In this document: piece after piece, positions 21,088 to 41,339 of the stretch
Layout: every line of letters begins with the position of its first letter
How positions within the stretch are numbered: position 1 is the stretch's first letter
Source: an uncultured Desulfobacterales bacterium
GTDB taxonomy: Bacteria; Desulfobacterota; Desulfobacteria; Desulfobacterales; C00003060
Length of the DNA: 64,000 nucleotides
NCBI GenBank assembly: GCA_964430705.1
Contig: CAYSGJ010000017.1
Coordinates: forward strand, 24,007-88,006
Direction: 5' to 3'
Notes under the pieces: generated by a model
The model's database searches: none
The model's input: the letters and a program-made list of their open reading frames with translations, nothing else
Told to the model about the DNA's origin: nothing
Made by a program: the position numbers and the translations under genes

Positions 21088-22482
21088 CTATGTTTTTGCA
21101 TGTTCATGGTTTCGGTTTTTCCTGAAATTGAAATACCAATATACGCAGATGCCTGCGCCGATCGTTGCCAGACCGAACAGGGAAGCGACGGGTCGGCTTT
21201 TGAGGGAAAAAAAGACGATCCACAAATTTCCAGCCATAAAAAGAGCCGGCGTCAACGGATATCCGAGCGTCCTGTAGGGTCTTTTTGCCCCCGGTTGCGT
21301 GATTCTCAGCACCATCAACCCCGCCACGGTGGCTATGGCGCACAGGGAAAGCGTGAAGCCGATATAGATAAGCAACTTGTCAAAGGATGCGGTAAGCGCC
21401 ATCGCAATGGCCACGGCGCCCTGCAAAAAGATGGCATGCGCCGGCGTCCTGTGGAGCCTGTCGACCTTGCCGAGACGCTCAAAGAAAACCCGGTCTTTTG
21501 CCATGGCATAGTAAACCCTTGGTCCGGTCATGACCATGGCGCTCAGGACCGACAACAGCCCCACGGCGATGGCCGCGCTGAAATATCTGCTGATGTGCGG
21601 GCCGAACAAGGCTATGGCCGATTCCGCCCCGACTTCCATCACTCCGCTCATTTGCTGCACAGGAAGGGCATAAACGTAAACCACGTTGAGAGCAACGTAG
21701 AGGCCCGTCACCACGAGGGTACCGACAAAAAGCGCCAACGGAATATTGCTGCCCGGATTTTGGATCTCCCCGCCCAGGTAGGCGGCGGCATTCCATCCGC
21801 TGTAGGCAAACGCGATGAATATGAGTGAAACGGCGAACTTGTCCTGAAACACGGAGGAGACATCAAGATCTGCCGAGAAATGCGCTGTTGAGCCATGCCC
21901 CATGAAAAGTCCGCCAACAACCAGAGCGAGAATGAAGCTTATCTTAAAAAGGGTCAAACCGTTTTGCACGCCCGTTCCCAGGCGGAGGCTGTGATAGTGA
22001 ATGAGGGAAACCGCAATAATAGCCGCCACAGCCAAGAGGGTGACCGGAGACAGGGTCAGAATCCTCACGCCGAAAAAAGACATCGTGTATTCGATGGAGG
22101 CTGAGATCGGCGCCACGCGAAAACAATAGCCGGCAAAGGCGATGGCCGCTGCTGCGATAGGAGCGGAAAACCCTACGATCAAGGAAATCCAGCCGGAAAG
22201 AAAAGCGATGCCCTTTCCGAATGCCTCCCGCAAGAACACATATTCGCCGCCGGCCTTTGGGAACATGGCGCCAAGTTCGCCATAACAAAGCGCCCCGCAT
22301 AAGGCAAAGACGCCGCCTACGACCCAGGCAGCAAGCATGGTATTGGGATTGCCAAGCTCCGCGATGATAAAGCCGGAGGTGGTAAAGATGCCGGTTCCCA
22401 CCATATTGGCAATCACCAGCACTGTCGCCGAAAAGAGGCTCAGTTCTCTTTTGAGGGTGCTGTTGTTCAACGTATTTTTCAA
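21088..22482 (-). CDS. APC-superfamily amino acid/polyamine-type permease
   Basis: 464 aa, about 12 TM. The N-terminal GTGIFTTSG motif is typical of APC transporters. Its start overlaps the upstream stop. Confidence 0.85.
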   Translation of the reverse strand: MKNTLNNSTLKRELSLFSATVLVIANMVGTGIFTTSGFIIAELGNPNTMLAAWVVGGVFALCGALCYGELGAMFPKAGGEYVFLREAFGKGIAFLSGWISLIVGFSAPIAAAAIAFAGYCFRVAPISASIEYTMSFFGVRILTLSPVTLLAVAAIIAVSLIHYHSLRLGTGVQNGLTLFKISFILALVVGGLFMGHGSTAHFSADLDVSSVFQDKFAVSLIFIAFAYSGWNAAAYLGGEIQNPGSNIPLALFVGTLVVTGLYVALNVVYVYALPVQQMSGVMEVGAESAIALFGPHISRYFSAAIAVGLLSVLSAMVMTGPRVYYAMAKDRVFFERLGKVDRLHRTPAHAIFLQGAVAIAMALTASFDKLLIYIGFTLSLCAIATVAGLMVLRITQPGAKRPYRTLGYPLTPALFMAGNLWIVFFSLKSRPVASLFGLATIGAGICVYWYFNFRKNRNHEHAKT

Positions 22483-23159
22483 GGCCCTTTGTCCCCGACG
22501 GCTCCCGTGTGTTCATCAAAGATGTGCCTTCGATCCAGATCTCGCCAATAGCCAATGGCCAATGTCCGAATATGGGCGAAATAGTCAGGATTGAGGCCGC
22601 CGTGCTCCTTCAAGGCGGCCTCAATGCCGGCCTTGATTTGGGCCACGATGTGGTCTTTGATCTTCAAGGTGATTTTGCGATCGTTGTAAGAAAAAGCGGC
22701 TGACGATGACGATGTTTCCTCAGAAATGCTTACAATAGCTGCACCTGCCGGTTTGCACTCGCGATATTGCTTGGACAAGTCGGCGGCATCAGACCAATGC
22801 ACGTCTTCGGACCAGGACCGCCATGGCGGCGCCGGCTTTTCCGATTCCTTTCCCTTGGCGACCACCGTGCGTTCTTGATTGAAATACTTCAAAAGCATGG
22901 CTGCATTGCGGCAGCCAACCTCGGGCGAGGATGCTCCGTCAGAGGTCACTATCAACGGAATATCCGCTGTGCCTGAGTTTAAAAGCATAATCATGGCGCG
23001 CATGTCGTCAAGGGCCAGATCCGTGTCCATCACGACCGATATCGTGTATGTGTGTGCCCCTGCAAAACGGACGAAAGATAACAGGCATACGAGCATGCAT
23101 GCCACGAGGGCCCTCCCGAAAAGAACCGGTCCCTTTATACCCTGATCTGTGGTTTTCAT
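22479..23159 (-). CDS. Exported protein with an N-terminal nucleoside-hydrolase-like (DXDXXXDD) domain
   Basis: Start ATG 23159. Hydrophobic signal/anchor LVACMLVCLLSFVRFAGA. VVMDTDLALDDMRAMIMLLNS matches the IU-nucleoside hydrolase signature. At 226 aa it is shorter than canonical enzymes. Confidence 0.6.
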   Translation of the reverse strand: MKTTDQGIKGPVLFGRALVACMLVCLLSFVRFAGAHTYTISVVMDTDLALDDMRAMIMLLNSGTADIPLIVTSDGASSPEVGCRNAAMLLKYFNQERTVVAKGKESEKPAPPWRSWSEDVHWSDAADLSKQYRECKPAGAAIVSISEETSSSSAAFSYNDRKITLKIKDHIVAQIKAGIEAALKEHGGLNPDYFAHIRTLAIGYWRDLDRRHIFDEHTGAVGDKGP

Positions 23160-23160
23160 A

Positions 23161-24096
23161 TCATCTTGCTTTCGTCTGCAGTCGCTGCATGGCGCTTTCG
23201 TAGGGCTTGCCCTCAAGAAACCGCCCGATGAAAAGCAGCCCCATGAATTTCTCGGCGTCTTTTGAAAGTTTCTCTCCCATGTCGGCCACCGTTCCGCGTA
23301 CGATACGCTGCCGATCCGGATACCCCGCCCAGAAGACGACCGCGCACGGCATGTCGGCGGGCAACACCTCCCCAAGATCTGCAAACAACTTCTCCGGATC
23401 ACGCAAGGCCATGTAAAGAACCATCGTGGCTGGGTATTTGGCCAGGTCCTGAAGGATCTGGGCGTCTTTCAAGCTTGCATCATCTCCCGACGCTCGATCT
23501 CTCAAAAAGGAAGGGCTTGCCTGCATAACGAACCTGGTGTCGTGGGAAGGAATCGTGCTTTTTCCAAGAGCTGCCATGGCCGACGCATCGCAGCCCATGC
23601 CCGGGATGATGATCACGTCTTGCGAATCGAAGTGCTCCACGTACCAGTGACTGGGACCGAACAGGCAGGGATTTCCCGAGTCGAGCAACCCTACATCTTT
23701 GCCCTGCGCCAACAGGGCCTTGATTTGTTTGACCCGCTCGTCCCTTATTTTGAACCGCTCCACCTTGAATTCGGCCTTTTCCTCCTCGCTCAGTTCCTGG
23801 GATTTTTTTCCCTTATAATCCCAGAGCCCTTTCCACGGATCAAACAAGGCCGTTTTCGGATCAATGTATTGCTCAAAAAGCTTCGCATGCTTTTCCGATG
23901 CCACAATCACCTCCATCCGCTTCATGGTCTCGAGGGCCTGCAAGGTGGCGGTCTGGGGGCCCGCAGGCCCGGTGCCGATGACATAGAAGTGGCCGCGTCC
24001 CCACGATCCGGCCTGAGGCGTGTGAAGACATAGAATGAGGACGGTTACAACGGCGACGGTCAAACAAGCTCGAATCGGTTGATGCCTATGCTTCAT
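23161..24096 (-). CDS. Exported tetrapyrrole-methylase-fold protein, paralogue 1
   Basis: Signal/anchor, then FYVIGTGPAGP, LLDSGNPCLFGPS, IIPGMGCDASAMAALG and TMVLYMAL. This is the motif order of the corrin/porphyrin methylase superfamily, with an altered Gly loop. Confidence 0.7.
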   Translation of the reverse strand: MKHRHQPIRACLTVAVVTVLILCLHTPQAGSWGRGHFYVIGTGPAGPQTATLQALETMKRMEVIVASEKHAKLFEQYIDPKTALFDPWKGLWDYKGKKSQELSEEEKAEFKVERFKIRDERVKQIKALLAQGKDVGLLDSGNPCLFGPSHWYVEHFDSQDVIIIPGMGCDASAMAALGKSTIPSHDTRFVMQASPSFLRDRASGDDASLKDAQILQDLAKYPATMVLYMALRDPEKLFADLGEVLPADMPCAVVFWAGYPDRQRIVRGTVADMGEKLSKDAEKFMGLLFIGRFLEGKPYESAMQRLQTKAR

Positions 24097-24103
24097 AAAT
24101 ACC

Positions 24104-24865
24104 TCACTTAATCCCAAAGGTTAACGTCATACAGTAAAAAAGCTCGTCGCATTCTGCCTGGTCAGGATACGGGCGTTTGTGAGGAACCTTGATCAGCCAC
24201 TCGCCCTTTTTTAAAATCTTGATATTGGCGATGCCGTCCCGGTTGACCATGGTTGAAAAGGCAAAGGTCTCGCCTTCATCGGAAAAACCGGCATAGGTGG
24301 CGTGTATGAAATCCCGAAACAGGGGGTGTCCTTTGTAGAGAAACTTTACCGGCAGCGTGTCCCCTTCTTTGAGGCTTGCCGGATTTGCCAGCGGCACAAT
24401 TTCGATAAAATCATTTTTTTCCCGGTTCAGGCCCTGTTCCTGTCCTCCCGCGTTGATGACCGCCTTGGCCCGCATATCATAGCTGACGCAATGCAGGGCG
24501 TTGTCCAGCCCTTTTTTATTCTGCCGTTTGGATCCTTCCGTGGTCTTGGTATACACACCGGGATTGATCTCGGCATACACCAGGTAGGTTCCTTTTTGTT
24601 TGACGGCAAGCTCGTATTTTCCTACGGCACGTTGCTTTATCGCCACGACATTGCCGTTTGGATCCAAAACATTCACATGCGCCAAGCGCTCCTCTTGCAC
24701 GATCTCATCTTTCGGAAACTTGTGACCCCAACCGACTTCGATCAGAACCGTGTCGCCGACTTGGGGCGCATAGTCGCCGGCATTGATCCAAAGCATGTGC
24801 CCCCAAACGGGAAGGGCGGCTGTAACCATCATCAAAAAGCACAACACAGAGACAATCTTTTTCAT
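24104..24865 (-). CDS. DUF4198-type periplasmic protein, paralogue a
   Basis: Signal peptide, then GHMLWINAGDY. Beta-rich, 253 aa. The family recurs next to the TonB-dependent receptors in this window. Confidence 0.7.
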   Translation of the reverse strand: MKKIVSVLCFLMMVTAALPVWGHMLWINAGDYAPQVGDTVLIEVGWGHKFPKDEIVQEERLAHVNVLDPNGNVVAIKQRAVGKYELAVKQKGTYLVYAEINPGVYTKTTEGSKRQNKKGLDNALHCVSYDMRAKAVINAGGQEQGLNREKNDFIEIVPLANPASLKEGDTLPVKFLYKGHPLFRDFIHATYAGFSDEGETFAFSTMVNRDGIANIKILKKGEWLIKVPHKRPYPDQAECDELFYCMTLTFGIK

Positions 24866-24976
24866 CCCAAATCTCCTTTCAAAAGCAATCCTATGCCTGT
24901 TTCATCAGGGCAGAAATCGGGTTTTTCGCGATCCGTCGTCAGATGCGGCGGCTCGGGTCTGTTGACGACACAAAGG

Positions 24977-25888
24977 TTACTGCGTCCTGTGTTTGACCAT
25001 TCCCCGTTGCGGCTGCCCTTCCAGGCACCGGCCGACGATAATCATGCCCATCCAGTTTTCCTTTTCCACCTTGATGTCGTTCAGGATGGTTCCGAGGGTT
25101 CCTCTGATAATCTTTTCCTTGTCCGGATCTCCCGCGTAATACACAACTGCCGCGGGCATGTCATCGGGATAGTACTTTCTCAGCGTAGCCATGAGGTTGT
25201 CTGCCTTTTTCAGGGCCATGTAGAGGCCGATGGTAATGGGATACTTGGAAAGATCTTTCAGGATGGCCTCGTCTTCCGGTTTTCCGAACAGAAACGTAGG
25301 CGCGGTGAGCATGAGAAATCGGGTATCATAGGCCGGGATCGACGATGTTTTTAACGCCGCCATGGAGGCCTGGAAGCACCCCAGTCCCGGGATGATCTCA
25401 AATTCGTCTTTTCGGAGGCCCTCGGCAACCCGGTGGGAAGGGCCGAAAACGCAGGGATCTCCGCTATCCAGGACGGCCACGGTCTTGCCCCGGGCCATTT
25501 GTTGTCTGATTTTGGCAACCGTCTCATCCCAGAATCGGAACCGCTCTTCCCGATATTCCTTTTTTTCCTCCGGGCCTAAAGTTTCCAGGTTTTTATATTT
25601 GAAGTCACCACCCCACGGGTTGCCCAGGTACTCTTTGCCCTCGAGATAGGAAGAGAACCTTTCGCGCACGTCATCCGAGCAAAAAATAACATCCGCTTCC
25701 TTGATGCATTGCATGGCCTTGACCGTGGCATGCTCGGGGCCGGCCGGCCCGGTCCCGATGACGTAGCATTTGCCCCGGCCTTTGTGATCCGGATCGGCCC
25801 AAACATGGGAAGCACCTGTAAATAAGAGAAAAACAACTGTCAGGATAAATAAATCCCGTAACGCCATCATGTTACACCGGGTGTGCAT
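24977..25888 (-). CDS. Exported tetrapyrrole-methylase-fold protein, paralogue 2
   Basis: ATG 25888 lies 7 nt after AAGGAG. Signal ...FTGASHVWA/DP. Motifs CYVIGTGPAGP, VLDSGDPCVFGPS, IIPGLGCFQASMAAL and GLYMAL. Confidence 0.7.
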   Translation of the reverse strand: MHTRCNMMALRDLFILTVVFLLFTGASHVWADPDHKGRGKCYVIGTGPAGPEHATVKAMQCIKEADVIFCSDDVRERFSSYLEGKEYLGNPWGGDFKYKNLETLGPEEKKEYREERFRFWDETVAKIRQQMARGKTVAVLDSGDPCVFGPSHRVAEGLRKDEFEIIPGLGCFQASMAALKTSSIPAYDTRFLMLTAPTFLFGKPEDEAILKDLSKYPITIGLYMALKKADNLMATLRKYYPDDMPAAVVYYAGDPDKEKIIRGTLGTILNDIKVEKENWMGMIIVGRCLEGQPQRGMVKHRTQ

Positions 25889-26078
25889 TGTCAGACTCCT
25901 TTTTTCATTAACATCTTTTCGCCGAGCCACACTATCATATCGGGTTGAGCAAACATTCCCTCCCCGACGCCTAATCAACCACCCTTCTGTAGGAAAAGGG
26001 CTTATGCCCGCACGAAAACTGTCATGCCGGATTACATCCGGCATGACAGAAATGGTAACGCATCGTTGATTCACAACA

Positions 26079-28142
26079 CTAGAATTTCAGCGTCGCTGTC
26101 AGGCCGGCGGTTGTTCCCGGCATGTCATACCCGTATTTGAGCTGATAATCCTGGTTGGTGACGTTGTTTACATACCCCTTCAAGACGAATTCGCAATCTT
26201 GGGGCAGTTTGAAAGTGTGCTGTGCACCCACGTCCACAACCACCACGTCTTTCATGGTGTCGTGCTGTTTGTTGTAACGTTCCCCCAGGTACTTGGCATT
26301 GAGGTTCACCACCCCGTTTTCCCAGAGCTTGTAGTCCAGACCCATGGATACCTTGTTCCGGGGCTGGCTCTGCAGGAGATAGTGGGTGTTTTCCGTGTCC
26401 ATGGGATGGTTGCTGGCGTTCCAGTCCTGATACGTGTAAGCCAGATAGCCGCTCAGATCCTGGGTGAAGCTTCTGGAAAGCTCCAGCTCAACCCCGTAGA
26501 CGAGCATATCGATATTGTACACGACCGCAGAGGCAGCGCCGCTGATGTAATTGTGCTGCTGATAGTCGCTGATGTCGGAATAATAAAAGGCGGCGCGGAA
26601 TTTCGTGTCTTCCAGAAGCTCTTTGACGCCCCCTATTTCATACGTCCACGCTGTTTCTGTCTTATACTCGGGATTTGCCGCTGCATATGCCGCTTCGGAC
26701 CCGGCCCGGGCCCATCTCCAGATATCTCAGATTCAGGGCAAACGCATTTCACGGCTGACAGCCGCATAGAGCGACAGGCTGTCATCCCAGTCGTAGTCCA
26801 GCCGCGTCTTGGGACACCACTCCCGTTCCACCCTTACTGTCGCTGTATTGGGATCTCCAAATACGCGGGAGTCGGTCGAAAATTCGTACCAGCGCGTTCC
26901 AAATGTCAGCGTCGTCGCGTCGGTGATAGACCACACATCCTGAATAAAAAGCGCGGTAATTTCATAGTAATCTTTGTTGTCGGGCGTACCCTGATTCCGG
27001 TAGTCGCCGCCGATGGACAGTGAATGATCCTTGATCAGGGTGAAATCCAAGTAATCCAGCGCAATGCCCCCGGTGTATTCTTCCTTGTAGTTGGAGCTGT
27101 CCGTTCCGTCGGCATTATGCCGGTACCGGTCCCGCTTGGACAATTGCTGGTACACCTGCCCCCGCAACTGCCCGACCGGAAGAGGCTGTTCGATGAGAAG
27201 GCTCTGGTCGTTGACCGTCCTTTCCCACTGGTTTTTCCCTCCGGCGTAGGCCGTGCCTTCGTAGTCGTGGCTGAAGGTGTCCACCTCGCCGGCACGAACA
27301 ACCGGGTACCCGGGATCGTAGTTCGAATCCGGATCATCGGGGTCGTTGATCACGGCGTAACCCGTGACCGTGTCCACATGGTCGATGCCGTAGGTGATCG
27401 TGCCGCCCGTGGGAAGGTAAAGCGAGAAACGTCCATTGATGTTGTCCGTGTTATAGTCGTTTCCGCGCAAAAAACCATCGCCTTCCCTGTGGCCCGCCGC
27501 AACCGCATAACCCAAGGTATTCAGCACGCCGCCGCTAAGGCTTGCACTGTAGTTTTGGGCGCCATAAGGACCGAAGCCCGTTTTGACGGTTCCGTTGGGA
27601 GTAAGATCATCGGTCTTTTTCCCTTTTTTGGTAATCAGGTTGACCGCTCCGCCCATGGAAAACGGGAAAAGGAGCGAATGGCTTCCGCGGACGATCTCAA
27701 TGGTCTCGATCATGTCCAAGGGCATGGTGCTCCAGTCCATCTTGAAATATCCGTGACTTCCGTGGAGTCTTAAGGGCCTGCCATCCATGAATACCTGGAA
27801 ACGCGAATCGTCCATTCCCCGGATATAGACTCCCTCGCTTTGCGACGGGGTCACGGAAGAGAAAAGCACGTTTATGCCAAGCGCGTCGCTCAGAATATCC
27901 TGTACATTTTCCGCCTTGCCGGCTTTTTGAAATTCCTCCACATTGATGACCGTCACCTGCGGCGTCACCACCATCGATTCATCCCGCAAGGGATGATCCC
28001 TTACAATGACCTTGTCGAGTCGATAGACCTTTTCGTCCTTCTTGGGTTCCGTCTTCTGGGCCCTACTGAAGCCCGGAATCGACAACACAAGAATCAGGCC
28101 CATCAATCCGACCAGGCCGCATCTTAGAATCCTCGTTGTCAT
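26079..28142 (-). pseudogene. TonB-dependent receptor 1, one continuous frame interrupted only by two TGA codons (26735-26733 and 26729-26727)
   Basis: ORFs 26733..28142 (plug plus barrel) and 26079..26522 (C-terminal barrel ending ...ATLKF) are in the same frame. The gap reads ..REMRLP-TGA-I-TGA-DIWRW.., aligning to GFRAPSLFELY of paralogue 2. Confidence 0.6.
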
Positions 28143-28423
28143 TCTCCCTCCTGCTCCTTTAATACGTGTCCGGTGTGTTTATAAGGGAGATCGATCTCGG
28201 GCGTGACAAATGCGTGTTCAGGGACCATCCAATTGACCCGGGGATGATTCGGTAGTATAAATACTTTCGAAGCATCCTCCACCCGAGGGGCTTCCCGGGG
28301 AAGGCGGCGCTATGACTCTGGGTGAGCCTGCCGCCTTCCCCAACCTTTACGATCTCGGTTTTCCAGCAGCCGATTGCCGTCATCACCTCCTTTCTTTGGT
28401 TGTGTTGCTGCGCAAAAAACGAC
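28143..28423 (-). promoter_or_regulatory. Structured 5' leader domain (type-2), homologous to 42123..42414
   Basis: Shared blocks: AAAGGrGGUGAU; a 12-bp helix GGGGAAGGCGGC/GCCGCCUUCCCC; AAGCCCCUCGGrUGGAGGAUGCUUCG; an AU-rich segment; CAUCCC. Compensatory changes relative to the paralogue. Confidence 0.55.
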
Positions 28424-28578
28424 AAAAAAAAGCCACGAAGTCACATCATCCCTTCTAGGATGCAAGCCTTCGTGGCTGGATTTGAGAAATTCCGAATCTA
28501 AATTGGTATTACCGGCAGTTTCTACCGCCGAGTTGCAAGTATATGCTCATATTTATCAGCCAAGCCCATACCTGTCAA
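28424..28578 (-). promoter_or_regulatory. Leader module i: promoter + AGAA-loop hairpin + terminator-like compound hairpin
   Basis: TTGACA (28578-28573)-17-TAAATA (28555-28550). Hairpin CGGCGGU-AGAA-ACUGCCG (28530-28513). AUCCAGCCACGAAGGCU..inner AUCCU-AGAA-GGGAU..CUUCGUGGCU plus U8 (28477-28424). Confidence 0.6.
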
Positions 28579-28840
28579 TGGAAAATCATGCCTTCCCCCC
28601 AAAAAAACGGTTGAAAAATAGCAGACAATGTCTAAAAAAATAACACTTTGGCATAAGCATGAAACATGTCAAACTGATTTCAATTTCATTATCGCACACT
28701 AACGAATTTAAGCTGCGGAAGCTGTCTTTTTCAGAAGAAAAGGAATCCTTGCGTGGCTTTATTGTTTTTGGCGCCGGGACCTGAGTAAATCGCGGAAGTG
28801 AACCTCGAAGGACATGATTTCAATTGGATACAGGAAGCCC

Positions 28841-29140
28841 ATGAAACCGATGAACGAGCAGGAAAAACTGAGAGTGCTTTTGGGTCACTGGGCGGCACAC
28901 AACCGTGAACATGCACAGGAATTTCGACGGTGGGCTCAGCGTGCCGGGCAGTTCGGGTCCGGCGATGCCGCCTCAGAACTTAAAAGCGCAGTACAAGAAA
29001 TGGAGCTGTTAAACAACAGCCTCCAGACCGCACTGGAAATGCTCAGGGCCCCCCTGGGAGACCACCATCATGATCACGACGTTATGCAAGCCGGCGGTGT
29101 CTTTATTGCCGATCCTGGCTATAAGCGCCGGATTTTATGA
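28841..29140 (+). CDS. Hypothetical helical protein with a His cluster (GDHHHDHD)
   Basis: ORF 28814..29140. Divergent from leader module i. No family recognised. Start uncertain (28814 or 28841). Confidence 0.4.
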   Translation: MKPMNEQEKLRVLLGHWAAHNREHAQEFRRWAQRAGQFGSGDAASELKSAVQEMELLNNSLQTALEMLRAPLGDHHHDHDVMQAGGVFIADPGYKRRIL

Positions 29141-29279
29141 TGCCCGGAGTATCCCTTTCTCGTTTTGGAATCGTCAGGTAGCTCCGACCGGCGCAACCTG
29201 ACCTACACTATTTATTTTAAACGACAAGGAACGCTCCGTGACGTTGTTTATTAAATTTGCCGGCGCAGCGCGATGGCCG

Positions 29280-29335
29280 CAAACCGCCCCGATTCAAACA
29301 ACGCGTTGTTTTATTCTAAAACTGAAAAAACATCG
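29280..29335. repeat. Left copy of a about 55-nt direct repeat flanking the vapBC cassette
   Basis: CAAACCGCCCCGATTCAAACAACGCGTTGTTTTATTCTAAAACTGAAAAAACATCG, compared with 30844..30931. Confidence 0.7.
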
Positions 29336-29429
29336 ATATCATTGGCTTGGATTTGCATCCAACGTCAAACTGTCGTTCGCAATTTAGACGGCATTCAGGG
29401 AGGTTGGCGTATGATTTGATTCGCGTGAA

Positions 29430-29880
29430 CTTGATGCATGGCTCAAGTGGCCGAACTGGAAACCGATGGTGCTCAGAGGCGTACGGCAGGTGGGAAAAAC
29501 GTGGCTTGTGCGGGATTTCGCCCAGAGGAACAAGCTTCGGCTGATTCAATCGAATGAAAAATTCTTCAAGGGCCTGATGCTGGATATCGGGCTCCGTTTC
29601 CACCATGCTCGGCCTTTCTTCGGTAGGACAGTCCCGCACTCAAATCATGGCTTTTGCAAATAAGGGGGGGCTGGCGGAACAGTTTGTCGGGCAACAATTG
29701 AGGGCGGCTCAGTCCCCATCACAGGATCCCCAGCTCTTTTACCGGCAAAGAACCGGCGGCCGCCAGGGTGAAATCGATTATGTCGTCCAGCATGGAAGTC
29801 ATATCATTCCCATCGAGGTAAAAGCCGTGGCCTCGGGAGGAATGAAATCCCTCCATCAATTCCTGTATGATGCCTTGACA
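29430..29880 (+). pseudogene. Remnant of an AAA+ ATPase (DUF4143-type) gene
   Basis: The P-loop piece VLRGVRQVGKTWLVRDFA joins directly to C-terminal pieces (..EIDYVVQHGSHIIPIEVKA..) in shifted frames. The N-terminus and middle are missing. Confidence 0.55.
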
Positions 29881-29897
29881 TTTCAGAACTTGATGCT

Positions 29898-30179
29898 ATG
29901 ATGCCTTTCATGAGAACAACACTGACCTTACAGGACGACCTGGCTCGAAAACTTCGTGAAAAGGCCCACCAGGAAGGCGTGTCTTTCAAGGAAGTCGTGA
30001 ATAATGCGATCAGGGAAGGTTTGAGCAGAATCGATCGACCCCAAAAAAATAAAAAACCGTATAAGTGCAAATCCTACAGCTTGGGTTATCCGCCCCGGGC
30101 TGCCCTTGACCACGCGCTGGAACTGGCAGACAGATTGGAATCAGAAGAGCTTGCGCGTAAATTACTGCTCAGAAAATGA
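29898..30179 (+). CDS. vapB: Type II antitoxin (VapB-like)
   Basis: MRTTLTLQDDLARKLREKAHQEG... is a typical short antitoxin. Its stop overlaps the start of the PIN gene. The start may be ATG 29910. Confidence 0.75.
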   Translation: MMPFMRTTLTLQDDLARKLREKAHQEGVSFKEVVNNAIREGLSRIDRPQKNKKPYKCKSYSLGYPPRAALDHALELADRLESEELARKLLLRK

Positions 30180-30604
30180 AACTCGTCGATATCAATCTGC
30201 TGATTTACGCCATCAATAAAGACACGCCCCATCATTCCAAGGCAAAGATTTGGCTGGAAGAGTCCCTGTCAAATGAGGAACCTTTTGGTTTCGCCTGGAT
30301 TGTGATTTTAGGTTTTTTGAGGATCGTCACAAATTCCAGAATCATGCCGGCTCCGCTTTCGCCCGAGCTTGCCATCGCTATTGTTGACGATTGGCTGCAA
30401 CAGCCGCCGTCGCTGACAGTTGTGCCATCACAACGGCACTGGTCCATATTGAAAGAATTGCTGCCGCCCCTTGGAACCGCCGCAAATTTAACCTCCGATG
30501 CCCATCTAGCTGCTCTGGCAATCGAGCACGGGGCCCGTCTCTATTCTACGGATAACGATTTCACCCGGTTTCAACCATTACGCTGGACAAATCCCTTGGA
30601 ATGA
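30176..30604 (+). CDS. vapC: PIN-domain toxin VapC
   Basis: MKLVDINLLIYA (first acidic residue), ...TSDAHLAALAIEHGARLYSTDNDF (PIN C-terminal acidic motif). Confidence 0.85.
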   Translation: MKLVDINLLIYAINKDTPHHSKAKIWLEESLSNEEPFGFAWIVILGFLRIVTNSRIMPAPLSPELAIAIVDDWLQQPPSLTVVPSQRHWSILKELLPPLGTAANLTSDAHLAALAIEHGARLYSTDNDFTRFQPLRWTNPLE

Positions 30605-30843
30605 CTGAGCCTTGCTCCAGAATGTCTTCAATGTAAAGGGAATCGAGCGACACGTTCTGGGCATTTTCAATATATAACGTTCTTCGAATTTCCACTTTTA
30701 ACGCTGAATATGTCCCTGTCGGCTGTAAGTGCGGCGGTTGAAAGAGGCGCAAGATTCGCCGCGGCGAACAACTATCTATTAACGGAAACCCTAAACATGT
30801 AAATCGAAAGAGAACGTCCCCAAAAGCCTGTGCACGATGGTCA

Positions 30844-30931
30844 CAAACCGACCCCACTCAAACAACGCGTTGAAATTTATATTTTTGACAATTTCAACGC
30901 GTTGTTTTATTCTAAAACCGAAAAAACATCG
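30844..30931. repeat. Right copy of the direct repeat, carrying an internal 15-bp inverted duplication
   Basis: CAACGCGTTGAAATT-N12-AATTTCAACGCGTTG is inserted relative to the left copy. Confidence 0.7.
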
Positions 30932-31189
30932 GCTTCGCAGTTCGCTTCAACGCCAATCCTCCAATGATTGAAAAAATAGACGTGAAAACAACATTGGGAC
31001 GGCCGGTTAAATACCGGCTGCTTTCATTGCCGCTGTATCTCGCCGGACGCCTCAACGCTCTCAGCGATTTGTATTACCAACCCGAATAAACGGGCGGCTT
31101 GCTGCACTTGTCCCATGGCAAGCAGTCAGCTTGCTGGTTGTCGTGGGCTCTCTATTTTTTCTTGCCTCCTTGATCGGATGTGAATACCG

Positions 31190-32278
31190 CTACAAAAGCC
31201 ATCTCTTAAAAAAGGGGTCGTGAATCGTCCAATGGTCGTTTTTTTCTACAGCCCCCAACTGCTCTACATGCGAAAGGGCGGCCGTGAGCTGTGATCCGGT
31301 CCGAAAGCCGTATTGGCTGAGGTTTTCTGCGGCAAAGACATTCTTGCCTCCTGTGCCCGCCACAAGCTTTAACGCCCGTTTTTGGTTCAACGTCAGGGTA
31401 TCCCACACGTAAGCGTACTCCGGTATCCGCTTCTCCACAAGGCGCCGTTCGATCCGATCGAGGACCTCAACGGACATATCCTTTTCCGGCCACAGGTGGA
31501 AAAAAAAGGCCTGGACATACATAGGGTGGTTTTCGCAACGCCCCGCCACGTCTTCGATCAATCTGTCGTCAATGGGCCGGTCGGCGTTCTTATAAAGACC
31601 CTTGATCCACCTGACATAATGTATAGTCTCGATCTTTCCCAACGGATATCCTTCAGCAGCCAGGTAGAAGGCGCGGTTTTTATCGCGGAACATTTCGGTG
31701 AGCAGATGGCGTTGGCTTCCGGCAAAAATGTACCCGATATTTCCGTGCATCTGGATCGCCTTTCTCAGGCGTTTTTCGAATGCCGGGCCGCCGTATGCCG
31801 CCACCTCCTGAAATTCATCGAAAGCAACGACCACTCTTTTCTTCCGGGAGAGGTTTTCTGCAACCTCAAATATCTCTTCGATGGTTCGATCTTCCACCGC
31901 CTTGCTGAACACGGGAACCGCCGTCGGCAGTCCGGTAACGGGATCGACGCTAAAGTTGATACCGATACTCCGGACGCCCTCACGAAATACTTTGATAAGC
32001 CGCTCCATTTTCGATTCGACGGTGCTGAGTCCTTTTAGGAAGGCGATCACAAATTCTTCCACACGGGTCGTCCCATAGAGGTCTACGTAGACCGGCGTCG
32101 CCTGCCTCAGGCCCTTGAAGATTTTCAGGATCAAAGATGTTTTACCGAACCGGCGGTGGGAATAGAGCAACACGTTCTGACCGTTCTCTATGTATTGCCG
32201 TAATTCTTTTTGCTCCTTTTCCCGATTACAAAAAGCACGATCTGCCACGACGCCTGAAAATTTGAATGGATTTTTCAT
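31190..32278 (-). CDS. AAA+ ATP-binding protein (archaeal-ATPase-like family)
   Basis: FCNREKEQKEL...LLYSHRRFGKTSL (Walker A), VVAFDEFQE (Walker B). 362 aa. Confidence 0.75.
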   Translation of the reverse strand: MKNPFKFSGVVADRAFCNREKEQKELRQYIENGQNVLLYSHRRFGKTSLILKIFKGLRQATPVYVDLYGTTRVEEFVIAFLKGLSTVESKMERLIKVFREGVRSIGINFSVDPVTGLPTAVPVFSKAVEDRTIEEIFEVAENLSRKKRVVVAFDEFQEVAAYGGPAFEKRLRKAIQMHGNIGYIFAGSQRHLLTEMFRDKNRAFYLAAEGYPLGKIETIHYVRWIKGLYKNADRPIDDRLIEDVAGRCENHPMYVQAFFFHLWPEKDMSVEVLDRIERRLVEKRIPEYAYVWDTLTLNQKRALKLVAGTGGKNVFAAENLSQYGFRTGSQLTAALSHVEQLGAVEKNDHWTIHDPFFKRWLL

Positions 32279-32594
32279 GGCCGGCCCACCCTCCGATATG
32301 ACGTTCGAGACGACTCCGTTTTGTTGTATTTATATTACGTTTTTTACGTATTGTCAATAAATAAGTAGCCTACTTGAAAGGAAGGCGTACCGCCACGGAA
32401 TCGCCCGGGCGCCTTTTGGCGTTGCGGGAAGTTGGAGACGCAGGTTAAATCATAATGTGATTCCCGAGGACGAAGCTGTTGCGAAAGGCGACATCGCTCC
32501 AGGAACATCAATTCTTGGTTTGCGAGGCGGGAAACACCGACTGAAGATCTGAATTTGAAGTTGATTGAAGAAAGAGATTCTACAATATCCCCCT

Positions 32595-33455
32595 TTACTT
32601 TGCGCACTGCCCCATGATGACCAAACCCAGCCATTTCTCATCCATTGCCTTCAGGTCCTGTTCGATCTTTCCCAGGCTGCTTCTCAAGACCCGCTCCTTG
32701 TCCGGGTAACCGGCGTAATATACGACGGCGATCGGCAAATCGGGAGAATAGTGTTGACGAAATCTTTCCGCCGCCTTGCTCATGGACGAAAGGGACATAT
32801 ACAAAACCATGGTCGTCTCATATTTAGACAAGTCCTTGAGGATCTCGTCTCCCTTTTCCCATGACTCGCCGAACAGGGACTGCGGCGAGGTCAGCGCGAC
32901 AAACCGCACATCACTTGGCGTCACGGTGGTTTTGAGGGCCGCCGCCGCCGCATTAAAAGCGCCCATGCCCGGCACCACTTCGAACAGGTCGGCATCAAAC
33001 CCTTCCAGCAGATAGTGAAGGCTCGGCCCGTAGACACAGGGATCGCCGCCGTCCATCATGGCTACGGTTTTTCCCTCGCTCAGTTTTTCCATGATGAATG
33101 CCTGCACCTTGGCCACCCGTTCCTTCCTTTCGGCAACCGCCCCCTCCGGATCGCTTTTTTTATCCTTTTCGACTTCCTTTCCCATCACGCGTTTCCACGG
33201 ATCAAAGGCAACCTTCTTGGGATCGATGTGCGTACCGAATCGCGCGAAGCGTTCCGGCATTCTCGGGGAACAAAGGTAAACGTCCGCCTTTTCAACGACG
33301 GCCAGCGCGCGGGGCGCCGTCAGATCGGCTCCGGCCGGCCCCATACCCACCACATACAGCTTGCCCATCCTGCCGCTGAACGCACTGAATGGGAATATCA
33401 GAAGGACAAGAAAAGCAACAACCGGCGCCAAGAAAAAGCTCGGGAATTTTCTCAT
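32595..33455 (-). CDS. Exported tetrapyrrole-methylase-fold protein, paralogue 3
   Basis: ATG 33455. Signal MRKFPSFFLAPVVAFLVLLIFPFSAFS. Motifs LYVVGMGPAGA, MMDGGDPCVYGPS, VVPGMGAFNAAAAAL and VLYMSL. Confidence 0.7.
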   Translation of the reverse strand: MRKFPSFFLAPVVAFLVLLIFPFSAFSGRMGKLYVVGMGPAGADLTAPRALAVVEKADVYLCSPRMPERFARFGTHIDPKKVAFDPWKRVMGKEVEKDKKSDPEGAVAERKERVAKVQAFIMEKLSEGKTVAMMDGGDPCVYGPSLHYLLEGFDADLFEVVPGMGAFNAAAAALKTTVTPSDVRFVALTSPQSLFGESWEKGDEILKDLSKYETTMVLYMSLSSMSKAAERFRQHYSPDLPIAVVYYAGYPDKERVLRSSLGKIEQDLKAMDEKWLGLVIMGQCAK

Positions 33456-33511: not shown

Positions 33512-34021
33512 TTACCGCCCATCCCGTTTTTTCATGGCTGTTCGGTTTTTCCAAAGATAAGCAATCGCACCAACGTTGAACATCAGGCTTAGTCCCAATG
33601 CGATTTTACCGGATTTTGAGGTTGGTCCGGATACCATCGCCTGCGTATCCTTATTGGGATGGACCGAGTCGGCCTGCTCGGTTGCATCCGGTGCGACCTC
33701 GATGACACCGCGCGCCAGGTGGCCCATGCCATCCTGGACCTCTATATGCCATGTGCCTGCCGTGTCCGGATAGAAAGCGAATCTGCCGCGACGATCGGTT
33801 CTTCCGTTTTGATATTCGACTTTTTCATCCAACGGACTGAACACGAGCACTTCGGCATACTGCATGGGTTCTCCGTCGGCATAATTGAACTCGGCTGTAA
33901 CGGCCCTGGCATCGTCCAAGACCCGATAGGCCGTTCCATGGGCGCCGGCAGCGGCGGCGCCGAAAAACACCAACGCCGGAATAACTCCGAACCAAACAAG
34001 ATATTTCATCACATTCTTCAT
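33512..34021 (-). CDS. Periplasmic Ig-like/carboxypeptidase-regulatory-like domain protein with a C-terminal membrane anchor
   Basis: Signal peptide, then a beta-sandwich-like segment (GRTDRRGRFAFYPDTAGTWHIEVQD), then a C-terminal TM (IALGLSLMFNVGAIAYLW). TAATG overlap with the upstream gene. Confidence 0.6.
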   Translation of the reverse strand: MKNVMKYLVWFGVIPALVFFGAAAAGAHGTAYRVLDDARAVTAEFNYADGEPMQYAEVLVFSPLDEKVEYQNGRTDRRGRFAFYPDTAGTWHIEVQDGMGHLARGVIEVAPDATEQADSVHPNKDTQAMVSGPTSKSGKIALGLSLMFNVGAIAYLWKNRTAMKKRDGR

Positions 34022-34743
34022 TATGGAACCTCAAATACGAGAAAGGTGGTAAAAAGATGATAATCTTTTTCCGGATCGCCTTTGACAGGAACCTTGTGCC
34101 GTGCCATCAATGGGTAAAAACCCTTTTTTGTTATCTTGATGCGGCCGGTCCCATTTGCGTCGGTTCGAATTGCCTCTCCATCCACGTCCAAAAGCGTGAC
34201 GTTCGCTAATGGATTGTCGTCGAAAACAGCCTGTATGGACAGGTCGCCGCCCACGGGAACGCGTGAAGGGTCTTCGAAGGGAATCAATTCAAATTTTATT
34301 CCAATCGGTTTTGTATTCCCCTCGCCTTCTTTGAACAGAACCTTGGCGTATTGGGTTGAAAAAAAGGAATCGATCACCCGAAGGCCCGCCTTTTCCGCAT
34401 CCTGCCTTCGCAACAGCTTTTTGCCCTGGGTCGTGTTGACGCGATATCCCCAATCACACCGGACCCCGACCAGTGAAATGCTTTCCGATGTCCGGAATCG
34501 AACTCGCTCCGCATCATCGATTCTCTGAAGCTTTTCAGCGGGTATGATCGCACCGTCCGGTCCTACCGCGACAAACGCCTTGACGTACTCGGGCTTATAG
34601 GGATCCAGTCGTTCAGGAATGAGCCCCCGGGCAACAACGTAGGAATCGTTAGTTTTCACCACCCATAGATGATGGGCGTATGCGGCGCTTACAGGAGAAA
34701 AGCCCATCAAGGCAAAAATGAAAGAGAGTCTAATCCAGGTCAT
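34021..34743 (-). CDS. DUF4198-type periplasmic protein, paralogue b
   Basis: Signal, then AHHLWVVKTND. Same architecture as 24104..24865 and 41340..42122. Confidence 0.7.
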   Translation of the reverse strand: MTWIRLSFIFALMGFSPVSAAYAHHLWVVKTNDSYVVARGLIPERLDPYKPEYVKAFVAVGPDGAIIPAEKLQRIDDAERVRFRTSESISLVGVRCDWGYRVNTTQGKKLLRRQDAEKAGLRVIDSFFSTQYAKVLFKEGEGNTKPIGIKFELIPFEDPSRVPVGGDLSIQAVFDDNPLANVTLLDVDGEAIRTDANGTGRIKITKKGFYPLMARHKVPVKGDPEKDYHLFTTFLVFEVP

Positions 34744-34886: not shown

Positions 34887-36968
34887 TTAAAATTCAACCT
34901 TCAGACCGGCTGTCACTATAGCACCCGGGGCGATGGTGTCCCCGCTCGAAATGGATCGAAATATAGGGTACTCTTTATCAAATATGTTTTCCGCATTCAC
35001 ATAAGCGGTGACGCGATCGAAGAATTTGCGCGAAACCGAAGCATCCACGGTAAGATAATCAGTTTCCTTCAGTGTGTTTTCATTGTCAAAGTAAATATTG
35101 GCATAGTAATTGGCGGTCAGCGAGATATTTACCAATTGCGGATTTTGATACCGGATCCCGAAATGGACCTGGTGCCGAGGATCGTTGGGCAGGTAGTTTC
35201 CCTCCAGATCGGCATTGTTCTCATCCTTTTTGACCTCAGAAATATTGAAGGTGTAGTTAGCAAAAAGGGTGAGGTCGGATAGCGCATACCACTCCAGTTC
35301 CGTTTCAACTCCGTAAATGTCTACCTCGCTGATATTGTCCAACTGATACTCATACCGGGTTTTGCCCCCGGCAAAGATGCCGGTGCCGGTGAGACGGTCG
35401 CCGATATAATCCTTGGCAAGAGACTGGTAAAAAGTCAGTCTGCCTTGGAGGCTGTTGGTCAGGAAATGTTCCACCCCTACATCGTAGGACCATATTTCCT
35501 CAGGCTCCAAATCGGGGTTGGCTTCACGATAATAGGTACCACCGCCGCGGACGTGAACTTTGTAAAGCTCAAAAAGACTGGGGGCCCGAAAACCCTTTCC
35601 GCCGGAGGCCCTTAGCGTGGTGTTATCATCGGGATGCCAGGCAACACCCAGTTTGGGGGAGAAACTGCCTTCCGTGTTGGAATCGTACCTATTGCTGTAG
35701 GCCGCCTTGCCCGCGCTTGCGGCCGTATCCCAATTGGCTCCGTCCGAGGTTTCAATCCAATCGTAGCGCGCCCCCAGGTTGACGATCAGACTGTCATTCA
35801 GAAAACGCAAATCCAGATTGGCAAAGGGAGAAATGAACTGCTGGGTGCCCTCGGCGCCTGCGTCACGGGTGCTGCCGGGGTAGTCCTCGTCATATTCAAA
35901 TTGCGCTTCCTTAAATGACGCGCCGAAAGTTATCCGGGCCGGGTTCCAATTCAAAAGTGTTCCCTGGAGATCGGCGCCCCAGGTTTGAGTGCCCTTAAAC
36001 TTTTCGTCTCTAAAGGGAGATGTGTAATTGTCGTTGGCCGTGTCCTGAAAGGCCGTTTTGTCCGCACGGTTGAGATAAAGGAGGCCCTTCAGCCCGAGGT
36101 TCTCCCCCGTGTTGGTGTAATTCAACCAGTATTGGTCCAGTTGCAGGTCGTTGTGAAAAAACTTGCGCCCCTGGCCCGCGTCCTGATCGAAATACAGTGC
36201 CGCAATAGAGATATCGGAGGACGAGGTCAGATCATAGGTCGCCTTGCCCAGCACCTTGCCCGCCTCACGGTACCGTTTGATGTTATAACTTTCCACCCGA
36301 TCAGTCATGTAAAAGCCGTCACTCTCCTCATAGCCGCCTGCCAGCATGAGTCCAAGGTCGTTGAATCTCTGGCTGTGATAGGCAGAACCGCTATAGGTGT
36401 CCCCGGTTCCCGCCGTTACATGCAGCGACGTTTGTCTCTGCAATTTCGGCTTTTTGGTGATGATATGGACCACACCGCCCAAGCCTTCTGATCCATACAT
36501 GGCGGAGGTCGGACCCCGCACGATCTCGATGCGCTCAATCGTTTCTTTGGGAATGTGACCCCAGGCCACCCAGGCAATGGCGTTGTTGAAATTGTCATTC
36601 TGCGGCACCCCATCCACCAGCACCAGAACCCTGTTGTTGCCGACGCCGCGCATTTTGAGGGGACTTACGATACCATTGGTCTGAAGTCCATAATGTCGAA
36701 AATTGTACATGCCCGGCACGCTGCGTACGATATCCTCCACGCGCTCAAAGGGCGAGGCCATGAGTTCCTCGTTGGAAATGACCGTAACACTCTGGGGCAC
36801 ATCGAACACGGACATCTCGCTTCGCGTGGCGGAAACAACCACTTCATCCAGCCTAATCCTTTGAGGTTCCGTGTCAGCCGCCAAACCGCACAAGGGAAGT
36901 GCCAAGACCATGGCCGTGAGCGCGGCGACGATGTGTGTTTTCACTCTTCTTCTCCCTTTCTTTTTCAC
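34887..36968 (-). CDS. TonB-dependent receptor 2
   Basis: Plug domain (DEVVVSATRSEMSVFDVPQSVTVI), barrel, GFRAPSLFELY, C-terminal ...AGLKVEF. GTG start 6 nt after AGGAGA; a later GTG at 36944 is also possible. Confidence 0.85.
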   Translation of the reverse strand: MKKKGRRRVKTHIVAALTAMVLALPLCGLAADTEPQRIRLDEVVVSATRSEMSVFDVPQSVTVISNEELMASPFERVEDIVRSVPGMYNFRHYGLQTNGIVSPLKMRGVGNNRVLVLVDGVPQNDNFNNAIAWVAWGHIPKETIERIEIVRGPTSAMYGSEGLGGVVHIITKKPKLQRQTSLHVTAGTGDTYSGSAYHSQRFNDLGLMLAGGYEESDGFYMTDRVESYNIKRYREAGKVLGKATYDLTSSSDISIAALYFDQDAGQGRKFFHNDLQLDQYWLNYTNTGENLGLKGLLYLNRADKTAFQDTANDNYTSPFRDEKFKGTQTWGADLQGTLLNWNPARITFGASFKEAQFEYDEDYPGSTRDAGAEGTQQFISPFANLDLRFLNDSLIVNLGARYDWIETSDGANWDTAASAGKAAYSNRYDSNTEGSFSPKLGVAWHPDDNTTLRASGGKGFRAPSLFELYKVHVRGGGTYYREANPDLEPEEIWSYDVGVEHFLTNSLQGRLTFYQSLAKDYIGDRLTGTGIFAGGKTRYEYQLDNISEVDIYGVETELEWYALSDLTLFANYTFNISEVKKDENNADLEGNYLPNDPRHQVHFGIRYQNPQLVNISLTANYYANIYFDNENTLKETDYLTVDASVSRKFFDRVTAYVNAENIFDKEYPIFRSISSGDTIAPGAIVTAGLKVEF

Positions 36969-41302: not shown

Positions 41303-41339
41303 TATTTGCTTTCCTCCTATTTAATCGCTTTCTGAAACG

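Follow-up and report, generated by a model that had tools for sequence, protein, structure and literature searches.

Three genes within a 64,000-nucleotide stretch of DNA from an uncultured Desulfobacterales bacterium (contig CAYSGJ010000017.1, positions 24,007 to 88,006; hereafter the window) encode exported proteins of the tetrapyrrole (TP) methylase fold, and they do so inside operons that open with a TonB-dependent receptor. An earlier note on this DNA, made from its letters alone, had pointed to these genes, and the observation is real; we call the proteins TPM. Class III methyltransferases belong to the cytoplasm, where they take part in the synthesis of B12, sirohaem and haem d1, and TPM constitutes a distinct, largely Desulfobacterota-specific exported branch of their fold that counts more than 100 proteins. 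We propose, with a probability of roughly 0.4, that TPM is a periplasmic binding or hand-over protein for an organic, carboxylate-bearing nickel or cobalt chelate arriving from the receptor, the metal of which would pass to a DUF4198 protein and the ligand (or the complex) to an APC-superfamily permease.

The three open reading frames are present at the places given by the earlier note, on the minus strand, which it had left unstated:

TPM_A, 23161..24096, minus strand, 311 amino acids (aa); second TPM copy in operon 1
TPM_B, 24977..25888, minus strand, 303 aa; next gene after the selenoprotein receptor TBDR_1
TPM_C, 32595..33455, minus strand, 286 aa; last gene of operon 2

JGI gene calls, made independently on metagenome contigs of identical sequence, place the starts alike and yield products of 303 aa and 311 aa.

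Fold and family membership

The Pfam profile TP_methylase (PF00590; gathering cutoff 27.8 bits) is matched by TPM_A at 105.5 bits (E = 4.7e-30), by TPM_B at 132.3 bits (E = 3e-38) and by TPM_C at 121.3 bits (E = 7.4e-35), over profile positions 1-211 of 212. Pairwise identity among the three proteins is 36-42% (41% between TPM_A and TPM_B). The AlphaFold model of TPM_B (pLDDT 89.1, pTM 0.80) adopts the two-domain alpha/beta/alpha fold with an interdomain cleft, and its top 50 Foldseek matches are all TP methylases, with CobM/CbiF being closest (target-normalised TM-score, TMt, 0.82-0.83, E ~1e-18, 19-24% identity); by phmmer, too, the nearest solved structures are those of CbiF/CobM (E = 3e-17). 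The full-profile match and the structural comparison thus agree on the fold that the earlier note had read from motifs. These motifs are all present, apart from an Asp that replaces the Tyr of AGYPD in TPM_B: the loop motif (FYVIGTGPAGP in TPM_A, CYVIGTGPAGP in TPM_B, LYVVGMGPAGA in TPM_C), the [LM]D[SG]G[ND]PC[LV][FY]GPS motif (LLDSGNPCLFGPS, VLDSGDPCVFGPS and MMDGGDPCVYGPS, in the same order), the PG motif (IIPGMGC..AMAAL, IIPGLGC..SMAAL, VVPGMGA..AAAAL), the LYM motif (LYMAL, LYMAL, LYMSL) and the C-terminal motif (AVVFWAGYPD, AVVYYAGDPD, AVVYYAGYPD). The helical DPW insert is borne out as well, by ~23 residues more than in CbiF between query residues 74 and 121 and by a long helix (106-132) in the AlphaFold model.

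We stress that membership of the fold is not membership of a known enzyme family. The best enzyme model, NCBIfam cobM_cbiF (TIGR01465), scores 69.4 (TPM_A), 95.1 (TPM_B) and 94.3 bits (TPM_C) against a cutoff of 259.65, and the three proteins likewise fail all other NCBIfam equivalogs. Considering these scores, the signal peptides and the lack of cob/cbi neighbours in ~41 loci, they do not qualify as precorrin-4 C11-methyltransferases.

A database search retrieved 200 homologues, nearly all from genomes and metagenome-assembled genomes of Desulfobacterota/Thermodesulfobacteriota; a scan of one genome per species yielded 34 loci (33 Desulfobacterota lineages and one Latescibacterota), and a profile search of 1.8 billion representatives gave 147 clusters at E <= 1e-30. 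The sequences are already public, under generic or wrong enzyme names: the databases list them as "SAM-dependent methyltransferase", "tetrapyrrole methylase" or "precorrin-4 methylase" (SAM, S-adenosylmethionine), and JGI names many of them precorrin-4 C11-methyltransferase CobM/CbiF. Cultured carriers include Desulfobacca acetoxidans (WP_013706566.1), Desulfosarcina variabilis and D. widdelii (WP_170302272.1). Literature searches found no paper on an exported TP_methylase-fold protein or on its link with TonB receptors, and a recent study of nickel homeostasis in Desulfobulbaceae does not mention exported TPM.

Export and natural fusions

TPM_A, TPM_B and TPM_C each start with a charged n-region, a hydrophobic h-region and a small-residue c-region, typical of a Sec-type signal peptide (assessed by a simple rule and by eye), in line with the signal peptide or anchor that the earlier note had seen at the start of each gene. 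Their N-termini read MKHRHQPIR-ACLTVAVVTVLILCL-HTPQAGS (TPM_A), MHTRCNMMALRD-LFILTVVFLLF-TGASHVWA/D (TPM_B, predicted cleavage ...HVWA/DPDH; here and below a slash marks the cleavage site) and MRK-FPSFFLAPVVAFLVLLIFPF-SAFS/G (TPM_C). No twin-arginine motif occurs in these N-termini, which argues for Sec export in an unfolded state, and a protein exported unfolded would not carry SAM out with it. Among full-length homologues, 106 of 110 N-termini pass the signal-peptide rule and the remaining 4 still have an h-region, so that a signal segment is found in 110/110 complete N-termini.

Natural fusions behind a single signal peptide join DUF4198 to TPM (P0126, P0183), rhodanese to TPM (P0124) and TPM to TPM (P0122), and a large group places two YedY-like domains and TPM behind a signal peptide. 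Since DUF4198 is periplasmic and has an N-terminal-His metal site, the DUF4198-TPM fusions are independent evidence for a periplasmic TPM; together with the family-wide signal segment they uphold the claim of export.

In about half of the TPM_B orthologues (P0002-P0045) the predicted first mature residue is His (...ALA/HPEH, ...THA/HQEK), which recalls the DUF4198 sites. It is not His in the TPM copies of the window (Asp in TPM_B, VWA/DPDH).

A probably retained pocket with replaced catalytic positions

We mapped the crystal contacts of NirE (as summarised in PMC4731766) onto TPM by motif alignment rather than by model coordinates, and counted residues over 122 or 123 family members. Five of the six SAM-contact positions are kept in this alignment: the loop Pro as P48 (122/122), the GDP Asp as D144 (116/122; Asn in TPM_A), Y185/M186 of NirE as Y223 (117/123) and M224 (123/123), and G215 as G253 (122/123). 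The canonical GxGPGD loop (GAGPGDP in CbiF) is replaced by GxGPAGP (A49 in 118/122, G50 in 121/122), the Asp of GPGD having become Gly in 121/122. Further replacements affect the remaining SAM-contact position, T133 of NirE (Gly in 119/123), R111 (Pro in TPM_B; position 150 is Pro in 104/123 and Arg in 19/123) and K102 (Asp in TPM_B; position 141 is Asp in 105/122). An Arg in the IP..TR loop, R190, is present in 111/123 members and, by motif alignment, probably occupies the carboxylate-binding Arg position of the SUMT family.

The 16 invariant columns of the TPM family lie almost entirely within the canonical motifs. Because most SAM-contact positions are retained and no columns of the family are better conserved, the pocket is probably still in use, whereas the machinery by which the characterised enzymes transfer methyl groups appears, from the aligned residues, to be gone. 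The earlier statement that an exported member is unlikely to methylate hence seems reasonable in view of the replaced catalytic positions, with the caveat that most SAM-contact positions are retained; as for the structural comparison, the fold agrees with CobM/CbiF as nearest, and the retention of SAM contacts was judged by motif alignment. A family-specific metal site was considered and dismissed, as there is no conserved Cys/His cluster (C146 in 99/122, H152 in 103/123).

Operons of the window

The window holds operons 1, 2 and 3, all on the minus strand, of which the third lacks TPM. Their order and components, other than the TPM genes listed above, are as follows:

Operon 1: TBDR_1, TPM_B, DUF4198_1, TPM_A, nucleoside-hydrolase/FmdE remnant, APC permease
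TBDR_1, 26079..28142, minus strand, TonB-dependent receptor, PUIUD-type selenoprotein, first gene of operon 1
DUF4198_1, 24104..24865, minus strand, predicted periplasmic metal-capture protein (PF10670, E = 2e-36; predicted mature N-terminus VWG/HM)
Remnant of an exported-type IU-nucleoside-hydrolase + FmdE fusion, 22479..23159, minus strand, in-frame internal deletion of ~270 aa
APC-superfamily (LAT-like) amino-acid permease, 21088..22482, minus strand, last gene of operon 1 (Pfam AA_permease_2, E = 2e-51)
Operon 2: TBDR_2, DUF4198_2, NikL-like gene, TPM_C
TBDR_2, 34887..36968, minus strand, receptor without selenocysteine (Sec), first gene of operon 2 (Pfam Plug and barrel domains)
DUF4198_2, 34021..34743, minus strand (PF10670, E = 4e-17; predicted mature N-terminus AYA/HH)
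NikL-like small exported or anchored protein (AGA/HG), 33512..34021, minus strand (NCBIfam NF058648, 53 bits, cutoff 100)
Operon 3, 39254..42122, minus strand: DUF4198_3 (41340-42122; PF10670, E = 3e-37), then TBDR_3 (39254-41302); without TPM, with the same leaders

In operons 1 and 2 a DUF4198 protein with a signal peptide and a predicted mature first His (VWG/HM, AYA/HH) thus stands beside a TonB receptor. The APC permease has its best NCBIfam match in the L-type amino acid transporter model TIGR00911 (210 bits, below cutoff), it is closest to L-type, BcaP and FrlA transporters (all below cutoff), methionine/branched-chain and S-methylmethionine transporters also being among its nearest models, and a GTGIF stretch was seen by eye in its first transmembrane segment. 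The NikL-like protein also has weak DUF4198 and CarboxypepD_reg matches. TBDR_2 likely starts at the GTG at 36968 and not at 37070, as a ribosome-binding site precedes this GTG and the leader terminator overlaps the longer reading frame. Of the nucleoside-hydrolase/FmdE fusion the window retains the N-terminal ~110 aa and the C-terminal ~70 aa only; full-length orthologues of 490 aa match PF01156 and PF02663 in three related loci (L035 5598-7073, L012 11177-12649, L006 14446-15942). The IU-nucleoside-hydrolase domain of this exported fusion carries a DTDxxxDD motif.

Conserved gene order in related loci

Gene order was compared for ~49 TPM genes in ~41 independent loci. A TPM gene starts no more than 300 nt past the end of a TonB receptor gene in 32 cases (and within 1.6 kb in 7 more), and for 25 TPM genes the very next gene is DUF4198; the APC permease comes next in ~16 loci (e.g., L003, L011, L026-L028, L035, L039), and a NikL-like gene follows in operons of the TBDR_2 type. 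In L005 and L006 orthologues of TPM_A take the corresponding place in the operon, and orthologues of TPM_C (54-63% identity) lie beside TBDR_2-type receptors in L030-L033 and L037. The functional partnership with receptors and DUF4198 proteins that the earlier note had argued from the window is therefore backed by conserved adjacency over ~41 loci.

Two loci add further genes. In L039 a cytoplasmic flavin reductase and an FmdE/Zn-ribbon protein stand between receptor and TPM, as would be expected if the metal chelate reaches the cytoplasm, while in L042 a Nik/Opp-type ABC system and a class-I methyltransferase lie just upstream of the module, with CooT nearby.

A distant exported clade of ~590 aa (P0153, P0164, P0207 and ~20 others) combines two YedY-like (Oxidored_molyb) domains with TP_methylase. 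One of its loci (L096, 704-7342) encodes a receptor, a CcsA-like and a ResB-like protein, the fusion, an APC permease and ExbB-ExbD-TonB, and has no DUF4198; the CcsA-like protein is below cutoff with a degenerate WWD motif, and the ResB-like match is faint and below cutoff. Because this distant clade has receptor, TPM fusion and APC permease, the recurrent core consists of receptor, exported TPM and APC permease, to which DUF4198 is added in Desulfobacterota.

Proposed role

We reason that the receptor would import a Ni/Co-type metal on a small organic, carboxylate-bearing ligand, and that TPM would accept this ligand in the cleft where its enzymatic relatives bind SAM and tetrapyrrole. DUF4198 would then receive the metal at its N-terminal histidine site, and the APC permease would carry the amino-acid-like ligand, or the complex, over the inner membrane. 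TPM would act here as a binding or hand-over protein rather than as a methyltransferase, because it leaves the cytoplasm unfolded, without SAM, and no longer has the GPGD Asp or the counterparts of residues implicated in catalysis by NirE. Candidate ligands, between which the evidence favours neither, would be a SAM-derived metallophore of the aminocarboxypropyl type or a metal-tetrapyrrole. We infer the ligand class, the hand-over and the lack of catalysis from the fold, export signals, conservation, synteny and fusions described above.

The metal side of this proposal draws on the only two characterised DUF4198 proteins, the ligands of which are bare Ni2+ or Zn2+ (PMC12537917, PMC12663993): IsDUF4198 binds Ni2+ with a Kd of 18 nM and belongs to a family whose neighbours include TonB receptors and NikR (PMC12537917), and Zcp binds Zn2+ in the periplasm (PMC12663993). 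Their metal site uses the N-terminal His that is produced by signal cleavage (PMC12537917, PMC12663993). The NikL-like gene and the CooC-like ATPase of the window, the Nik/Opp-type ABC system and CooT of L042, and the flavin reductase and FmdE protein of L039 belong to the same metal theme.

Several points weigh against the chelate hand-over. Receptor/DUF4198 operons without TPM exist (operon 3; L052, L059, L081, L087) and work without it, which makes TPM accessory, and operon 2 and its relatives have TPM and no APC permease. The Sec-x-Sec of the selenoprotein receptor could mean that the cargo is bare metal ions and not chelates. Retention of the SAM motifs may reflect the stability of the fold and not ligand binding, the pocket positions being those of a motif alignment, and the related exported YedY-like-TPM clade keeps the canonical GMGPGD, which fits retained chemistry. 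Around the operons no genes for making a metallophore came to light, the co-regulated class-I methyltransferase giving no indication either way; literature searches retrieved no paper on an exported or periplasmic tetrapyrrole methylase, and APC permeases are not known as carriers of metal chelates.

Alternative explanations

The earlier note had thought a tetrapyrrole-binding or chaperone role in the periplasm plausible. Such a binder (for a corrinoid, haem, sirohydrochlorin or F430), fed with a metal-tetrapyrrole by the receptor in the manner of CbiK and FetB, we regard as a real though minor possibility. The nearest relatives of TPM, CbiF/CobM, bind cobalt-tetrapyrroles; the exported chelatase paralogues are a true precedent, the literature agreeing with the note that the periplasmic CbiK of Desulfovibrio vulgaris binds metalated porphyrins; the best NCBIfam subfamily for TBDR_2 is a haem/haemoglobin receptor (248 bits, below the cutoff of 317); R190 presumably sits, by motif alignment, at the carboxylate-binding Arg position of SUMT; and the CcsA-like and ResB-like proteins of L096 belong to haem-handling families. 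This last pair, below the curated cutoffs and confined to the distant exported clade, is however the sole hint towards tetrapyrroles among the clues to the cargo. No cobalamin or other Rfam riboswitch was detected in the window and 14 related loci (~345 kb, gathering thresholds) or in permissive riboswitch scans of the upstream regions, and no BtuFCD- or HmuTUV-type importer is found among the operon genes that are annotated or carry Pfam calls; the operons contain no ABC importer, save for the Nik/Opp-type system beside L042. The receptors score 59-144 bits against the 600 of the BtuB equivalog, the inner-membrane partners are the LAT-like permease (an amino-acid-type carrier, too small for tetrapyrroles) or the NikL-like protein, and the DUF4198 partner belongs to a family with bare Ni or Zn in both characterised members. 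Given the absence of riboswitch and importer and the Ni/Zn- and amino-acid-type partners, a tetrapyrrole or corrinoid ligand is unsupported. Searches for Fur, NikR (two spacings and the E. coli type) and Zur consensus sequences returned nothing credible in 29 upstream regions.

If the conserved SAM-contact positions, the best-conserved part of the family, are taken at face value, TPM might methylate the cargo of the selenoprotein receptor in the periplasm, with a LAT-type exchanger exporting SAM and importing the spent product and with the nucleoside hydrolase clearing S-adenosylhomocysteine (SAH). LAT-family transporters are typically exchangers, the related exported clade retains GMGPGD, the APC permease is present even without DUF4198, and an exported IU-nucleoside-hydrolase/FmdE fusion occurs in several operons. 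We nevertheless deem this improbable: the GPGD Asp and the equivalents of NirE R111, K102 and T133 are lost in the window's family, modules of the operon 2 type do without the APC permease, the nucleoside hydrolase is a deleted (and therefore dispensable) remnant in the window, Sec export rules out co-export of SAM, and we know of no periplasmic SAM-dependent methylation. The retained SAM-pocket residues, the permease's nearest models (L-type, methionine/branched-chain and S-methylmethionine transporters) and the exported nucleoside hydrolase of some operons would also fit scavenging, in which TPM binds SAM, SAH or a nucleoside-amino-acid conjugate for import by the APC permease and the metal proteins are loosely linked; this, too, is unlikely, in that DUF4198 adjoins TPM in most loci and is fused to it in some genomes, TPM-less receptor/DUF4198 operons share the same leaders, and the Desulfobacterota that carry these genes, probably free-living, have no evident reason to import SAM. 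Least credible is an artefact of localisation, whereby the N-terminus is a membrane anchor and an ordinary methyltransferase domain stays in the cytoplasm. Signal peptides assessed by rule leave room for it, as does the NCBI start of the D. widdelii orthologue, which lies downstream and drops the signal; yet the positive charges before the h-region predict N-in, C-out, AxA-type c-regions are common, the fusions put TPM after a DUF4198 whose metal site needs the cleaved N-terminal His, and the neighbours are all envelope proteins with no cob/cbi/hem gene. We leave a small chance to some role of TPM outside all of these.

The selenoprotein receptor

TBDR_1, the receptor directly upstream of TPM_B, contains two in-frame TGA codons (CCC TGA ATC TGA GAT, ~26727-26735; translation ...RLP*I*DIW), at which open-reading-frame finders split it in two. 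Residues 1-469 alone match NCBIfam NF049944 (TonB_dep_PUIUD) at 842 bits, where the cutoff for the whole protein is 850; with this profile match and an in-frame UGA-x-UGA in the motif, TBDR_1 classifies as a PUIUD selenoprotein. The U-x-U takes the place of S-L-F in the usual FRAPSxxEL barrel motif, and a hairpin resembling a selenocysteine insertion sequence (SECIS), GGGCCCG-GGC-CGGGUCC, begins ~21 nt past the first UGA. The in-frame stop(s) of receptors of this type are conserved in ~20 related loci. A pseudogene is ruled out by the profile match, the conserved in-frame stops and the UGA-x-UGA, and selenocysteine recoding is favoured; selenoprotein TonB receptors have been predicted previously in Desulfosarcina sp. 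BuS5.

The 190-nt gap between TBDR_1 and TPM_B contains a perfect 14-bp hairpin (26019-26049, minus strand, CTGTCATGCCGGAT-GTA-ATCCGGCATGACAG), which may serve in processing or stability or act as a partial terminator.

Leader RNAs

Two structured elements precede the operons of the window:

Leader-1, 28424..28575, minus strand, before operon 1
Leader-1 copies, minus strand, 37047-37196 (operon 2), 42415-42565 (operon 3) and 43872-44015 (class-I methyltransferase ORF 43155-43892)
Element-2, 28232..28395, minus strand, before operon 1, between leader-1 and the first gene
Element-2, second copy, 42233-42399, minus strand, before operon 3, between leader-1 and the first gene

Leader-1 (25 aligned instances) comprises a sigma-70-like TTGACA promoter, a small xGAA-loop hairpin, a long hairpin whose conserved base is formed by AGCCACGAAGG...CCTTCGTGGC, and then a T-run; it recurs in L003, L008-L011, L013, L018, L019, L022, L023, L026, L029, L030, L032, L033, L037, L040, L041, L055, L081 and L087. 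Leader-1 might serve as an attenuator or bind a protein. Convergent genes flank some copies, so that it may instead be a terminator typical of the lineage rather than a sensor, and some of its copies elsewhere work as bidirectional terminators. In L003 a DDE transposase (5891-7498) sits between leader-1 and the receptor gene, cutting the leader off from its operon.

Element-2, a structured RNA ~165 nt long, contains the conserved pieces GAAAGGAGGUGAU, GGGAAGGCAGC...GCUGCCUUCCC and GGUGAAGCCCCCUCGGGGUGAGGGAUGCUUCG and has no Rfam match. Its P2 helix shows 6 compensatory pairs, with 90% of cells paired as against ~50% in slid controls (21 aligned instances), and a competing hairpin shares the strand AUGCUUC. 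Further copies occur in L005-L010, L022 (two copies), L029, L035, L042, L052, L054, L055, L059, L062, L081 and L087. A pattern scan of metagenomes gave 53 matches, 12 of which passed the motif filter; two of these (L051, L063) are chance matches inside high-GC coding region, and 8 of the 10 real instances have a receptor or DUF4198 gene as the first one that can be recognised downstream, the contig ending before that in L062 and L092. Wherever the contig reaches far enough to show such a gene, element-2 thus stands upstream of a receptor or of DUF4198, and since it precedes these genes only, regulon inference brings no new information on a ligand. We consider element-2 a candidate new riboswitch, and knowing its ligand would probably show what the cargo of these operons is.

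Other features of the window

Energy-coupling genes lie near the operons, and the neighbourhood as a whole suggests a nickel flavour:

TonB, 44361-45089, minus strand (Pfam TonB_C)
ExbB, 46090-46824, minus strand (Pfam MotA_ExbB)
Class-I methyltransferase ORF, 43155-43892, minus strand, preceded by a leader-1 copy
CooC/CbiA-type ATPase with a long His-rich tail, 18793-19791, plus strand

The class-I methyltransferase was discarded as a clue to the ligand, since it has generic matches only. Three plus-strand frames without a Pfam match are rich in, or begin with, His: ORF 37727-37996, almost all His, Glu and Asp and divergent from operon 2; ORF 28814-29140, with a short His run (DHHHDHD); and an exported protein (18208-18717) with a predicted mature N-terminal His (CYG/HGEF). 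Operons 1 and 2 are separated by a gene pair that resembles a VapBC-type toxin-antitoxin system by eye (29898-30179 and 30176-30604) and by an ATPase_2/AAA gene (31190-32278), and the segment 28800-32300 looks like inserted, unrelated DNA.

Implications

A conserved exported branch in TonB-dependent uptake operons points to a second, cell-envelope role for the fold. Its annotation as precorrin-4 methylase or SAM-dependent methyltransferase would inflate B12-pathway calls in metagenomes of sulfate reducers. The ligand of TPM would inform how Ni/Co-type trace metals pass the outer membrane of Desulfobacterota, which depend heavily on Ni, Co and Se, and the selenocysteine receptor and the two uncatalogued leader RNAs at the same loci are further entry points. 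Periplasmic methylation, if true, would be the first known case in bacteria of SAM-dependent methyl transfer beyond the cytoplasm.

Comparison with known systems

BtuB-type loci (BtuB with BtuG/BtuH or BtuFCD) likewise have a TonB receptor followed by accessory binding proteins; unlike them, the TPM operons have no cobalamin riboswitch and no BtuFCD, and their receptors fall far below the BtuB equivalog. Closer in content are the modules of TonB receptor and DUF4198 (NikK/Zcp-type), which share with the window the pairing of receptor and DUF4198, the mature N-terminal His and the NikL-like partner. The described modules of this type have no TP_methylase-fold component and no APC permease, and in place of their metal-responsive control (no NikR, Fur or Zur site here, in the 29 upstream regions) the TPM operons have uncatalogued RNA leaders.

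Among the enzymes, CbiF/CobM (PDB 1CBF, 2CBF, 3NDC, 4E16) have the same two-domain class III fold, are the best match in both sequence and structure and have the GDP, PG and A-[GT] motifs in common with TPM, which differs from them by GPAGP for GPGD, ~23 extra residues (DPW and the long helix), a signal peptide and the absence of a cob/cbi context. The SUMT family (CobA, NirE, the methylase domain of CysG) has the Y-M motif and the GDP Asp as TPM does, and presumably also the Arg of the IP..TR loop, a loop that we placed by motif; SUMT enzymes are cytoplasmic, and R111, E114 and K102 of NirE (catalytic/structural) are not kept in TPM. FetB/IhtB of Porphyromonas gingivalis is encoded beside a TonB-dependent receptor. 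It and the periplasmic CbiK of D. vulgaris (PDB 2XVX) have the class II chelatase fold, unrelated to that of TPM, and both bind metalated porphyrins, a ligand that has been demonstrated for them; like TPM, they are paralogues of tetrapyrrole enzymes that acquired a signal peptide and a place in the cell envelope.

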